A DNA stretch of 64,000 nt from Escherichia coli (lineage in GTDB: Bacteria > Pseudomonadota > Gammaproteobacteria > Enterobacterales > Enterobacteriaceae). Both the position numbers and the translations under genes were made by a program. Location: the NCBI RefSeq assembly GCF_003334405.1, contig NZ_QOWM01000002.1. One strand, written 5' to 3'. The notes below the pieces were generated by a model. The model worked only from the letters and a program-made list of their open reading frames with translations, did not search any database and was not told the origin of the DNA. Shown here one piece after another: positions 2,606 through 13,420 of the stretch (position 1 is its first letter; each line of letters starts with the position of its first letter).

Positions 2606-3935
2606 TCGTAAATATTTCGGTACCGATGGGATTCGTGGTCGTGTAGGGGATGCGCCGATCACACCTGATTTTGTGCTTAAGCTGGGTTGGGCCGCGGGTA
2701 AAGTGCTGGCGCGCCACGGCTCCCGTAAGATTATTATTGGTAAAGACACGCGTATTTCTGGCTATATGCTGGAGTCAGCACTGGAAGCGGGTCTGGCGGC
2801 AGCGGGCCTTTCCGCACTCTTCACTGGCCCGATGCCAACACCGGCCGTGGCTTATCTGACGCGTACCTTCCGCGCAGAGGCCGGAATTGTGATATCTGCA
2901 TCGCATAACCCGTTCTACGATAATGGCATTAAATTCTTCTCTATCGACGGCACCAAACTGCCGGATGCGGTAGAAGAGGCCATCGAAGCGGAAATGGAAA
3001 AGGAGATCAGCTGCGTTGATTCGGCAGAACTGGGTAAAGCCAGCCGTATCGTTGATGCCGCGGGTCGCTATATCGAGTTTTGCAAAGCCACGTTCCCGAA
3101 CGAACTTAGCCTCAGTGAACTGAAGATTGTGGTGGATTGTGCAAACGGTGCGACTTATCACATCGCGCCGAACGTGCTGCGCGAACTGGGGGCGAACGTT
3201 ATCGCTATCGGTTGTGAGCCAAACGGTGTAAACATCAATGCCGAAGTGGGGGCTACCGACGTTCGCGCGCTCCAGGCTCGTGTGCTGGCTGAAAAAGCGG
3301 ATCTCGGTATTGCCTTCGACGGCGATGGCGATCGCGTGATTATGGTTGACCATGAAGGCAATAAAGTCGATGGCGATCAGATCATGTATATCATCGCGCG
3401 TGAAGGTCTTCGTCAGGGCCAGCTGCGTGGTGGCGCTGTGGGTACATTGATGAGCAACATGGGGCTTGAACTGGCGCTGAAACAGTTAGGAATTCCATTT
3501 GCGCGCGCGAAAGTGGGTGACCGCTACGTACTGGAAAAAATGCAGGAGAAAGGCTGGCGTATCGGTGCAGAGAATTCCGGTCATGTGATCCTGCTGGATA
3601 AAACTACTACCGGTGACGGCATCGTTGCTGGCTTGCAGGTGCTGGCGGCGATGGCACGTAACCATATGAGCCTGCACGACCTTTGCAGCGGCATGAAAAT
3701 GTTCCCGCAGATTCTGGTTAACGTACGTTACACCGCAGGTAGCGGCGATCCACTTGAGCATGAGTCAGTTAAAGCCGTGACCGCAGAGGTTGAAGCTGCG
3801 CTGGGCAACCGTGGACGCGTGTTGCTGCGTAAATCCGGCACCGAACCGTTAATTCGCGTGATGGTGGAAGGCGAAGACGAAGCGCAGGTGACTGAATTTG
3901 CACACCGCATCGCCGATGCAGTAAAAGCCGTTTAA
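2598..3935 (+). CDS. glmM: phosphoglucosamine mutase
   Basis: 445-aa ORF with phosphoserine-site motif SASHNP and start [14 protein letters not shown]. Confidence 0.95.
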
Positions 3936-3952
3936 AGCGTTAGATAACTGGC

Positions 3953-3982
3953 TAAAAAGGCGGCGATTGTCGCCTTTTTTCT
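3953..3982 (+). terminator. Rho-independent terminator-like hairpin after glmM
   Basis: aaaaaGGCGGCGAttgTCGCCttttttct; approximate. Confidence 0.5.
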
Positions 3983-4162
3983 CAGCGAACACATCGGTTT
4001 TGCTGTTTTTTTCCGCAGTTGATACAATGCGATAAAATTGCCCTTGCGAAGGTCATTCGCTTTGGTTAGTATTCACACCCGCTTCAGTGGGAAAGATTAA
4101 AAACTCCCGCTTTATTGGTTGAAGCATTGGTACGCGGCAACTCCGCAAGGAACAGGTTGATT

Positions 4163-4495
4163 ATGTATGAAGCTCTTTTAGTAGTTTTCCTTATTGTGGC
4201 AATTGGCCTTGTTGGTCTGATCATGCTGCAGCAAGGTAAAGGCGCTGATATGGGAGCCTCCTTCGGAGCAGGCGCTTCCGCTACGCTGTTTGGTTCAAGT
4301 GGTTCTGGTAACTTCATGACCCGCATGACGGCGCTGCTGGCAACGTTATTCTTCATCATCAGTCTGGTGCTGGGTAACATCAATAGCAACAAAACCAATA
4401 AAGGTAGCGAATGGGAAAATCTGAGTGCACCGGCGAAAACCGAACAAACTCAGCCAGCTGCTCCGGCTAAGCCGACCAGCGATATCCCGAACTAA
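4163..4495 (+). CDS. secG: protein-export membrane protein SecG
   Basis: Track ORF 4115..4495 trimmed to MYEALLVVFLIV; two hydrophobic segments and a Gly/Ser-rich loop. Confidence 0.92.
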   Translation: MYEALLVVFLIVAIGLVGLIMLQQGKGADMGASFGAGASATLFGSSGSGNFMTRMTALLATLFFIISLVLGNINSNKTNKGSEWENLSAPAKTEQTQPAAPAKPTSDIPN

Positions 4496-4508
4496 AAAGT
4501 AGTATCCG

Positions 4509-4595
4509 TGCCGAGGTGGTGGAATTGGTAGACACGCTACCTTGAGGTGGTAGTGCCCAATAGGGCTTACGGGTTCAAGTCCCGTCCTCGGTACC
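4509..4595 (+). tRNA. leuU: tRNA-Leu, anticodon GAG
   Basis: Cloverleaf readable: acceptor GCCGAGG/CCTCGGT, anticodon loop CTTGAGGT, long variable arm, 3' ACCA; sits 13 nt after the secG stop. Confidence 0.88.
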
Positions 4596-4603
4596 AAATT
4601 CCA

Positions 4604-4633
4604 GAAAAGAGACGCTGAAAAGCGTCTTTTTTC
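4604..4633 (+). terminator. Rho-independent terminator after leuU
   Basis: aaaagAGACGCtgaaaaGCGTCTtttttcg. Confidence 0.55.
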
Positions 4634-5054
4634 GTTTTGGTCCTGGTCTGAGGAATGGTTGTCAGGTATCTGTATCTCGTCCAGTTGCTTTACTCGTAGC
4701 TGGTACCTTGAAACGATGGTGCCGGTACGCCTTAGTTATAAATTTTTCCCTTCTACTGACATAATTGGCACTTTATTGTGTCAACTCCAGTTCCGGTACG
4801 AATACGGATATGTTTACTTCTCGATAAACCATCCTGCTCCTGTCAGTATAACGACTGATGGCTACGTTCTGCGTAATGTTTAGAGACGCATTGATAATGT
4901 TATTTAATTACTGAGAACGCAATGGCCGCATCATTTAAAAAGAAAAAACTAACAGTGTTTCGTTCTGATATGGATCAGAGTTGAAAAACATGTCTGATAT
5001 AAAATTAAACATTGTTGATAATTGTTTATATTGGTTGTGAACTTGGATTTCTGG

Positions 5055-6680
5055 ATGACAGTATTCAACAAATTTGCTAGAACTTTTAAATCTCATTGGT
5101 TGTTGTATCTTTGTGTTATTGTTTTTGGTATTACGAACTTAGTCGCTTCTTCCGGAGCGCATATGGTTCAGCGCTTGCTGTTCTTCGTTCTGACCATCCT
5201 GGTTGTAAAACGTATATCATCCCTTCCGCTTCGCCTGCTTGTTGCCGCACCATTTGTGTTACTGACTGCGGCAGACATGAGTATTAGCCTCTATTCATGG
5301 TGTACCTTTGGTACAACTTTCAATGATGGATTTGCGATTAGTGTGCTCCAGAGTGATCCGGATGAAGTTGTCAAAATGCTGGGGATGTATATCCCTTATC
5401 TATGTGCCTTTGCTTTTTTATCCCTTCTTTTTTTGGCAGTAATAATAAAATATGATGTTTCCTTGCCGACAAAAAAAGTGACAGGAATATTATTGCTGAT
5501 TGTCATTTCGGGCAGTTTATTTTCCGCTTGTCAATTTGCTTATAAAGATGCAAAAAATAAAAAAGCGTTCAGTCCATATATACTAGCGTCGCGATTTGCT
5601 ACCTATACGCCGTTTTTCAATCTCAACTATTTTGCTTTAGCAGCGAAAGAGCATCAAAGATTACTCTCAATTGCAAACACGGTGCCGTATTTTCAATTAT
5701 CAGTCAGGGATACAGGTATTGATACCTACGTGTTGATTGTGGGGGAGTCTGTACGTGTCGACAATATGTCTTTGTATGGATATACACGCTCTACGACACC
5801 GCAAGTTGAAGCACAAAGAAAACAGATCAAACTGTTTAATCAAGCAATAAGCGGCGCACCTTACACTGCGCTGTCGGTTCCCCTTTCTTTAACTGCTGAT
5901 TCTGTTTTGAGTCATGACATTCATAATTACCCCGACAACATTATTAATATGGCTAATCAAGCAGGATTTCAGACTTTCTGGCTAAGCTCGCAATCCGCTT
6001 TTCGGCAGAATGGTACAGCAGTTACCAGTATCGCCATGCGCGCCATGGAAACAGTTTATGTCAGAGGATTTGATGAATTGTTGTTGCCGCATTTATCGCA
6101 AGCATTACAGCAAAATACGCAGCAAAAGAAACTGATTGTTCTTCATTTAAATGGAAGCCATGAACCGGCTTGTAGCGCCTATCCGCAATCCAGCGCCGTG
6201 TTTCAACCGCAGGACGATCAGGATGCCTGCTATGACAACTCCATTCATTACACAGATAGTTTGCTAGGTCAGGTTTTTGAATTATTAAAAGATCGCCGCG
6301 CCTCGGTCATGTATTTTGCCGACCACGGCCTGGAACGTGACCCTACGAAGAAGAACGTCTATTTTCATGGAGGCAGGGAGGCTAGCCAGCAGGCATATCA
6401 TGTCCCGATGTTTATCTGGTATAGCCCCGTTCTTGGGGATGGCGTGGATCGCACAACGGAAAACAACATCTTTTCGACAGCTTACAATAATTACCTTATT
6501 AATGCGTGGATGGGGGTAACAAAGCCGGAACAGCCGCAAACGCTTGAGGAAGTGATTGCACACTATAAAGGAGACTCACGGGTTGTGGATGCAAACCATG
6601 ATGTTTTCGATTATGTGATGCTCAGAAAGGAGTTTACAGAGGATAAGCAAGGTAACCCCACCCCTGAAGGGCAGGGTTGA
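5055..6680 (+). CDS. yhbX: EptA/sulfatase-family inner-membrane protein (putative phosphoethanolamine transferase), AT-rich gene
   Basis: Track ORF 5022..6680 trimmed to MTVFNKFARTF; N-terminal multi-TM region then a sulfatase-like soluble domain; visibly AT-rich. Confidence 0.8.
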   Translation: MTVFNKFARTFKSHWLLYLCVIVFGITNLVASSGAHMVQRLLFFVLTILVVKRISSLPLRLLVAAPFVLLTAADMSISLYSWCTFGTTFNDGFAISVLQSDPDEVVKMLGMYIPYLCAFAFLSLLFLAVIIKYDVSLPTKKVTGILLLIVISGSLFSACQFAYKDAKNKKAFSPYILASRFATYTPFFNLNYFALAAKEHQRLLSIANTVPYFQLSVRDTGIDTYVLIVGESVRVDNMSLYGYTRSTTPQVEAQRKQIKLFNQAISGAPYTALSVPLSLTADSVLSHDIHNYPDNIINMANQAGFQTFWLSSQSAFRQNGTAVTSIAMRAMETVYVRGFDELLLPHLSQALQQNTQQKKLIVLHLNGSHEPACSAYPQSSAVFQPQDDQDACYDNSIHYTDSLLGQVFELLKDRRASVMYFADHGLERDPTKKNVYFHGGREASQQAYHVPMFIWYSPVLGDGVDRTTENNIFSTAYNNYLINAWMGVTKPEQPQTLEEVIAHYKGDSRVVDANHDVFDYVMLRKEFTEDKQGNPTPEGQG

Positions 6681-6687
6681 TGTCGAA

Positions 6688-8046
<1,359 letters not shown>

Positions 8047-8256
8047 TTAATTAACTGATGATGAGCCTGGATTTCCGCTCTCACTGAATTTTTATGCAAA
8101 ATAAATGAGTTTTCATTTAATCATCTTTTATCGGAGACAGGAAGAGTTTAGTGTGTTTTTTGTAAAATAATGCGCTTAAGGGAGAGCAGGAGAAGGCAAA
8201 AGTATTCAACAAATGAAAGTGAACTGGATATTCATTCACATGATTAGCAATAAACG

Positions 8257-8286
8257 TTGACAAAATGTGGCGTGGATCACTATAAT
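8257..8286 (+). promoter_or_regulatory. Near-consensus sigma70 promoter (TTGACA, about 18 nt spacer, TATAAT) upstream of metY
   Basis: ttgacaaaatgtggcgtggatcactataat read directly; about 95 nt upstream of the tRNA. Confidence 0.5.
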
Positions 8287-8378
8287 GCCTGCAGATTTTA
8301 CGTCCCGTCTCGGTACACCAAATCCCAGCAGTATTTGCATTTTTTACCCAAAACGAGTAGAATTTGCCACGTTTCAGG

Positions 8379-8455
<77 letters not shown>

Positions 8456-8577
8456 CTTTCCCTTAGAGTCCTTTTTCAAATATACTGTGAAGACTTCGGC
8501 CTTCGTAGTGGGATTTGAAAAAATCCTTCTGGAAAGTGCTCCAGACCGCAGTTGCGGTTATAGGGTTCAGTTATATA

Positions 8578-8606
8578 AAGCCCCGATTTATCGGGGTTTT
8601 TTGTTA
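8578..8606 (+). terminator. Rho-independent terminator after metY
   Basis: aaaGCCCCGATttatCGGGGttttttgtt. Confidence 0.5.
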
Positions 8607-8661
8607 TCTGACTACAGAATAACTGGGCTTTAGGCCCTTTTTTTATGTCTTGGGGGTGGGC

Positions 8662-13337: not shown

Positions 13338-13420
13338 TTCCATGCGGGATAAGGCGTTTACGCTGCATCCGGCATGGATTGCCTGATGTGACGCTGGCGC
13401 GTCTTATCAGGTCAACGTGA
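13338..13420. repeat. REP-like palindromic units between infB and rbfA
   Basis: gcgggataaggcgtttacgctgcatccggca and gcctgatgtgacgctggcgcgtcttatcaggtc resemble REP consensus. Confidence 0.45.

Follow-up and report, generated by a model that had tools for sequence, protein, structure and literature searches.

The secG–leuU operon of Escherichia coli: a known mRNA–tRNA co-transcript, its conserved gene order, and a possible origin of its terminator by integration into leuU

The 64,000-nt stretch of Escherichia coli DNA analysed here (contig NZ_QOWM01000002.1, hereafter the window) contains a locus that is almost certainly the E. coli secG–leuU operon, which yields an mRNA–tRNA co-transcript. As the window thus holds a system that already bears a name, this finding is already known. 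The operon was published by Nishiyama and Tokuda in 2005 (BBA 1729:166; PubMed 15951035), and its processing was worked out by Mohanty and Kushner in 2008 (NAR 36:364; PMC2241853); the northern, primer-extension, and end-mapping evidence for the co-transcript is already published. The sequence-only reading that this analysis followed up correctly recovered a classic case of a tRNA cut out of the 3′ portion of an mRNA; as stated, it contained nothing new. The evolutionary piece presented below, namely the old linkage of the two genes and a terminator that tracks insertions at the 3′ end of leuU, is a small and modest addition. On balance, we lean towards the view, drawn from the comparison of sequences, that the terminator was not an original part of the operon and may have come with DNA integrated into the leuU 3′ end.

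Identity of the Locus and Gene Order

Coordinates refer to the window and, unless otherwise stated, to features on the + strand. The coding sequence of secG (4163–4495, ATG to TAA; RefSeq) encodes the 110-aa SecG subunit of the SecYEG translocon; its product matches E. coli SecG with 100% identity, and homologues carry the PF03840 domain. On the same strand follows leuU (4510–4596), the 87-nt gene for tRNA-Leu2 with anticodon GAG and an encoded CCA at 4594–4596, which was called by ARAGORN, matched the Rfam tRNA model with 52.8 bits (E = 4e-10), and is annotated in RefSeq as well. The tight linkage of the two genes read from the sequence was, thus, borne out. The spacer had been given as about 13 nt; the closeness holds and the exact length does not, as the spacer AAAGTAGTATCCGT (4496–4509) measures 14 nt, the same length as in the published description (PMC2241853). 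The tRNA reads the codons CUC and CUU and has been reported to be essential (PMC2241853).

The order of the neighbourhood in RefSeq is ftsH, folP, glmM, secG, tRNA-Leu, yhbX, argG (on the opposite strand), tRNA-Met, and rimP. The region 3900–5050 is 100% identical to that of E. coli K-12 MG1655, and the locus was found in all of the complete E. coli genomes searched (5426 of 5426). Because the query (3900–5050) was <80% covered in one piece in about 250 of these 5426 genomes, the interval around leuU is somewhat variable within the species. In strains BY63 and BY68 (NZ_CP090570.1 and NZ_CP090212.1), a copy of IS1A breaks the glmM–secG–leuU–yhbX region. Nothing in the window sequence contradicts the identity of the operon.

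Promoter, Start Sites, and 5′ UTR

The upstream boundary of the secG–leuU unit is marked by a terminator-like hairpin with a T-run after glmM (GGCGATTGTCGCC followed by TTTTTT, 3962–3981). The published sigma-70 promoter (PMC2241853) consists of a −35 element TTGCGA (4044–4049) and, at a spacing of 17 nt, a −10 element TAGTAT (4067–4072), each matching the consensus at 4/6 positions. Among 12 Enterobacterales (alignment A6), hardly any change is seen in the two hexamers, in the T-tract upstream of them, or in the GC-rich region at the start. Within 4000–4081, the conserved T-tract GCTGTTTTTTTCCGCA is located upstream of the promoter and the GC-rich segment TCACACCCG between the −10 element and the start. 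These two segments are presumably reminiscent of stable-RNA promoters under growth-rate control.

Transcription starts mainly at the G at 4081 and, to a minor extent, at the C at 4078, which correspond to the published positions −81 and −84 mapped by primer extension and TAP-dependent 5′–3′ ligation as ends carrying 5′ triphosphates (PMC2241853). Counted from the A of the ATG, the two bases are located 82 and 85 nt upstream, and the published numbers are one base lower; this offset is a counting convention. The resulting secG 5′ UTR of ~82 nt (4081–4162) contains conserved stems, in which the 5′-terminal GCUUC pairs with a GAAGC ~45 nt downstream, together with an inner hairpin, while a GCGG/CCGC hairpin immediately precedes the Shine–Dalgarno sequence. 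Since these stems show little variation, with a covariation term of ~0, the structure of the 5′ UTR is only suggested. A SELEX site reported between yhbX and leuU (PMC5493296) was considered as a leuU promoter and discarded, as it is located downstream of the tRNA.

Maturation of the Co-Transcript

The proposal that the tRNA is cut out of an mRNA–tRNA co-transcript is supported and has been demonstrated on this very sequence by published northerns, end mapping, and mutants. Two large transcripts, GU1 and GU2, hybridise with the secG probe as well as with the leuU probe, and both begin at the triphosphorylated ends described above (PMC2241853). According to the literature, the primary transcript of ~555 nt comprises a leader of ~82 nt, secG, the 14-nt spacer, and leuU, and stops at the terminator. 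[quoted passage not shown] If kept, the terminator hairpin inhibits RNase P, as described in the literature. A single RNase P cut between positions 4509 and 4510 then generates the mature 5′ end of the tRNA and leaves the 14-nt spacer intact on the secG mRNA (PMC2241853), whereas the sequence GUAGUA (4499–4504) serves as an inefficient RNase E site when RNase P is inactive (PMC2241853). The final 1–2 nt at the 3′ end of leuU are trimmed by RNases T, PH, and D (literature), and the freed secG mRNA undergoes exonucleolytic decay with a half-life of <30 s (PMC2241853). In northerns, only full-length co-transcripts, pre-leuU extended by 6–11 nt, and mature tRNA were detected, and the sole 5′-extended leuU precursors seen were RNase E products of the co-transcript (PMC2241853). 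[quoted passage not shown] No gene other than leuU encodes this essential tRNA, and its output depends on the secG promoter, on terminator removal by RNase E/G, and on cleavage by RNase P.

The catalytic RNA of RNase P (M1 RNA) is also encoded in the window, by rnpB (58381–58757; Rfam RNaseP_bact_a, 318.6 bits), ~54 kb downstream of its secG–leuU substrate, and acts in trans on the co-transcript at the cut between 4509 and 4510 (PMC2241853, PMC7049720). Further Rfam matches above gathering were the sRNA SraG (15270–15441, − strand), the S15 leader (14926–15040, + strand), and naRNA4/CssrE (13343–13413, + strand), which are expected features of the rpsO–pnp/infB–truB region.

The Terminator after leuU

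A consensus scan found no terminator-like site on the + strand across 4163–4603, in agreement with the statement that no terminator separates secG from leuU. The strong terminator that had been placed 3′ of the tRNA is equally evident: a Rho-independent terminator occupies 4604–4639, with an extended hairpin at 4604–4633 that comprises 13 pairs, 5 of them G–C, followed by a T-run, and constitutes the strongest site in 3700–5200. Its core pairs AGACGCT with AGCGTCT around a GAAA loop (4610–4627), and on the 3′ side a TTTTTT run is followed by CGTTTT. The hairpin folds with −19.5 kcal/mol vs −8.0 ± 2.3 for shuffled sequences (z = −5.05, with none of 200 shuffles as good). Furthermore, in an alignment of homologous terminators from 14 genera (A5), 100% of the cells are paired and compensatory changes occur at 5/9 pairs; this level of pairing was reached by 0/500 shuffles, and slid controls were 32–68% paired. 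The published terminator is 36 nt long, and GU1 exceeds GU2 by ~40 nt (PMC2241853).

Several other matches around these hairpins were discarded. A − strand terminator-like site at 4473..4447 is located inside secG and was taken as chance. STnc50 (22.6 bits vs a gathering threshold of 55) and isrK (17.4 bits vs 50), both over the tRNA 3′ end and terminator, as well as SAM_alpha and CsrC at the glmM terminator, were rejected, since they are far below the Rfam gathering thresholds and are explained by generic terminator hairpins.

Alternative Explanations

If leuU were expressed from its own promoter in secG or in the spacer, the adjacency of the two genes would merely reflect gene packing and the co-transcript would be a minor by-product. 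A relaxed scan does return two 8/12 matches inside secG (GTGGCA-17-GATCAT at 4196 and ATGACG-16-TATTCT at 4325), and a marginal 9/12 match occurs between the secG start and leuU in 14/80 of the species compared. However, the standard consensus scan of 4163–4509 detected no promoter-like site, those found in other species are weak and lack a conserved position, and a promoter within the spacer is impossible because 14 nt are too short to hold one. An independent tRNA promoter with no read-through from secG, named beforehand as what would speak against co-transcription, is at odds with the data, as no consensus promoter was found between the two genes. Moreover, the published northerns contain no intermediate-size primary leuU transcripts and the 5′–3′ ligation data point away from a primary end in 4163–4510 (PMC2241853), which makes this explanation scarcely credible. 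A transcript beginning further upstream and reading through from folP–glmM, of which secG–leuU would be only the tail, is very improbable. In its favour, folP, glmM, secG, and leuU share one strand, and with 5 pairs in the consensus scan the hairpin downstream of glmM is a short one that could leak, but primer extension in secG gave no products longer than those of the −81/−84 starts, whose ends are triphosphorylated (PMC2241853). In addition, the near-invariance of the secG promoter hexamers across Enterobacterales argues that this promoter is in use.

The remaining explanation concerns the hairpin at 4604–4633, which might serve mainly as a stability or processing element or as the terminator of a convergent gene. 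It also scores as terminator-like on the − strand, and in Citrobacter and Enterobacter it lies between A-runs at one flank and T-runs at the opposite flank and faces the 3′ end of a convergent argG, so in those genera it may act both ways. In E. coli, however, no convergent gene ends at 4604–4633, since yhbX, which comes next, is located on the + strand, and 60% of the co-transcript 3′ ends map just after the hairpin in the wild type and 93% in the rne-1 mutant (PMC2241853). A hairpin that is not primarily the terminator of the operon is, thus, exceedingly unlikely, and the preferred reading remains a single unit that starts at the secG promoter and stops at the terminator after leuU.

Conservation of the secG–leuU Linkage

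The surroundings of secG were compared across species by scanning one genome per species with a SecG alignment (A3, 7 sequences) and keeping the best 80 loci, in which SecG showed 57–95% identity and which belong to Enterobacterales, Vibrionales, Aeromonadales, and Alteromonadales. A tRNA-Leu(GAG) gene follows secG on the same strand in every one of these best gammaproteobacterial loci (80/80), at a distance of 6–297 nt with a median of 27. Only in Shewanella atlantica (L068) does the secG–leuU spacer contain a terminator-like site (1/80), and five further weak matches among the 80 loci share one position inside the secG coding sequence. A positionally conserved internal promoter between the secG start and leuU was not found in these 80 loci. 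We infer from this pattern that the linkage of secG and leuU, with no terminator between the two genes, was present in the ancestor of at least four gammaproteobacterial orders. The co-transcription architecture is, therefore, ancient rather than an oddity of E. coli. Pseudomonas presumably has the same order, i.e., secG, tRNA-Leu, tRNA-Met, and rimP.

The leuU–metY Junction

Downstream of leuU, the loci fall into two states. In the compact state (48/80 loci), metY is located 48–133 nt after leuU and is followed by rimP–nusA, with no insert. Compact loci occur among L016–L081, e.g., at L019:2969–3029 and L034:2992–3053. None of these 48 compact loci contains a terminator-like site after leuU, and in its place their spacer carries a promoter-like site in front of metY that reaches the 9/12 scan threshold in 17/48; in most Enterobacterales compact spacers, a TTGCA-17-TAGTAT ahead of metY is visible by eye only. 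In the other state, metY is far away or unseen, and a terminator follows leuU in 29/33 of such loci. These leuU terminators constitute one homologous family, in which AGACGYY and RRCGTCT enclose the loop and are followed by T6–8 (alignment A5).

In the window, metY (tRNA-Met, 8379–8455) and the rimP leader (8544–8644) precede rimP–nusA–infB. The segment 8321–8378 aligns with the compact spacers as a homologue of the ancestral ~59-nt leuU–metY spacer and holds a promoter-like site for metY, TTTGCA-18-TAGAAT. Immediately 5′ of it, 8302–8320 (GTCCCGT-CTCGGTACACCA) represents a relic of the leuU 3′ end; including the trailer, the relic extends over 8302–8328 (GTCCCGT-CTCGGTACACCAAATCCCAG) and forms a direct repeat with 4579–4604, which comprises about 18 nt of the tRNA 3′ end and 8 nt of the trailer. 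A blind scan of 7.5 kb for a leuU relic was not significant (score 25 vs a null of 20.4 ± 2.1 with a maximum of 30), while at its specified position the score was reached by 0/5000 shuffles. In Citrobacter, Superficieibacter, Enterobacter, and Phytobacter, the relic is better kept, with 18–25 identical nt at the same place. It was accepted on account of the position-specific test, the better copies in relatives, and its continuity with the conserved spacer. The relic, which probably marks the far edge of inserted DNA, and the 3′ end of leuU itself thus form a direct repeat on either side of the leuU–metY DNA, enclosing the terminator, yhbX, and argG in the window. A different direct repeat (D5), between 4704–4723 and the leuU anticodon arm at 4538–4557 (75% over 20 nt), was unsupported, and it was rejected because the best + strand Smith–Waterman match of leuU against 4641–8378 is located elsewhere and the scores are within the shuffle range.

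The bracketed DNA consists of argG in Citrobacter, Superficieibacter, Enterobacter, and Phytobacter, and of argG plus yhbX in E. coli. While argG is host-like in composition, yhbX (4900–5700) has a GC content of ~0.37 vs about 0.50–0.55 in its flanks, and of the 81 loci compared, YhbX was found in that of E. coli alone. These two features are consistent with a later, separate acquisition of yhbX inside the leuU–argG interval.

Other genera carry different genes at this junction. In Rosenbergiella gaditana (L031:3141–4406) and Budvicia aquatica (L049:3117–4445), leuU and its terminator are directly followed by a gene for a protein with a P4-type integrase domain (E = 1e-73; 248 and 245 bits, respectively, under the NCBIfam curated cut-off of 434). 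The loci with integrases or cargo are near contig ends, and their inserts were, thus, seen from the leuU side. Unrelated cargo after leuU in other genera (L018, L005, L051, L043, and L032) includes SfnB, a PrpA/B-like phosphatase, a TOMM cyclodehydratase, a reductase, and a HisS-like protein. The E. coli leuU–metY segment contains no integrase, only yhbX and argG, and a search within one collection of papers for leuU in connection with an integrase or an island returned nothing relevant. Taken as a whole, these observations suggest that the 3′ end of leuU is a hotspot for integration.

A sequence of events can be proposed for this region. The ancestral secG–leuU unit, with no terminator of its own, would have run into the ~59-nt spacer holding the metY promoter and then into metY–rimP–nusA–infB. 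In the Escherichia/Citrobacter/Enterobacter lineage, DNA would have integrated into the 3′ end of leuU, leaving a terminator of the conserved family on the left and the 27-nt leuU relic (8302–8328) on the right, and the integrated segment would now carry argG and, in E. coli, also yhbX. If this is correct, the removal of the terminator by RNase E before the action of RNase P would be a lineage-specific consequence of the insertion, and species with the compact layout would produce secG–leuU–metY(–nusA–infB) read-through transcripts. The compact and inserted states would also offer a natural comparison to understand why a 3′ terminator inhibits RNase P.

Comparison with Related Systems

The closest known system is the published E. 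coli secG–leuU operon, whose promoter, 14-nt spacer, AAUU site, and terminator are all as in the window, with no difference from the window locus. The metT operon shares the order of processing, in which RNase E removes a Rho-independent terminator and RNase P then separates the units (PMC2241853). However, metT contains only tRNAs and no protein-coding cistron, unlike secG–leuU.

With respect to the leuU–metY DNA, genomic islands and prophages that enter tRNA genes at the 3′ end by means of P4-type tyrosine integrases provide the nearest parallel. They are accompanied by a second, directly repeated copy of that end, as found around the leuU–metY DNA, their cargo varies, as does that of the leuU junction between genera, and their empty-site state is matched by the 48/80 compact leuU–metY loci. 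In contrast to these islands, the E. coli leuU–metY segment contains no integrase, carries the housekeeping gene argG, and has no evident mobility.

Units that mix tRNA and mRNA also occur elsewhere in E. coli. The thrU–tyrU–glyT–thrT–tufB operon is a mixed, co-transcribed tRNA–mRNA unit, and in metY–rimP–nusA–infB of the window the tRNA and the mRNA are, as we take it, likewise co-transcribed. Both are mixed units like secG–leuU. In these two, the tRNA comes first, at the 5′ end, so that the mRNA is left on the downstream side of the RNase P cut. In secG–leuU, by contrast, the tRNA is located at the 3′ end and the mRNA is left upstream, which makes this operon the mirror image of metY–rimP–nusA–infB. 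The secG–leuU operon has been called “unique in E. coli” for combining a protein gene with a tRNA gene (PMC2241853), a description that looks too strong in view of metY–rimP–nusA–infB.
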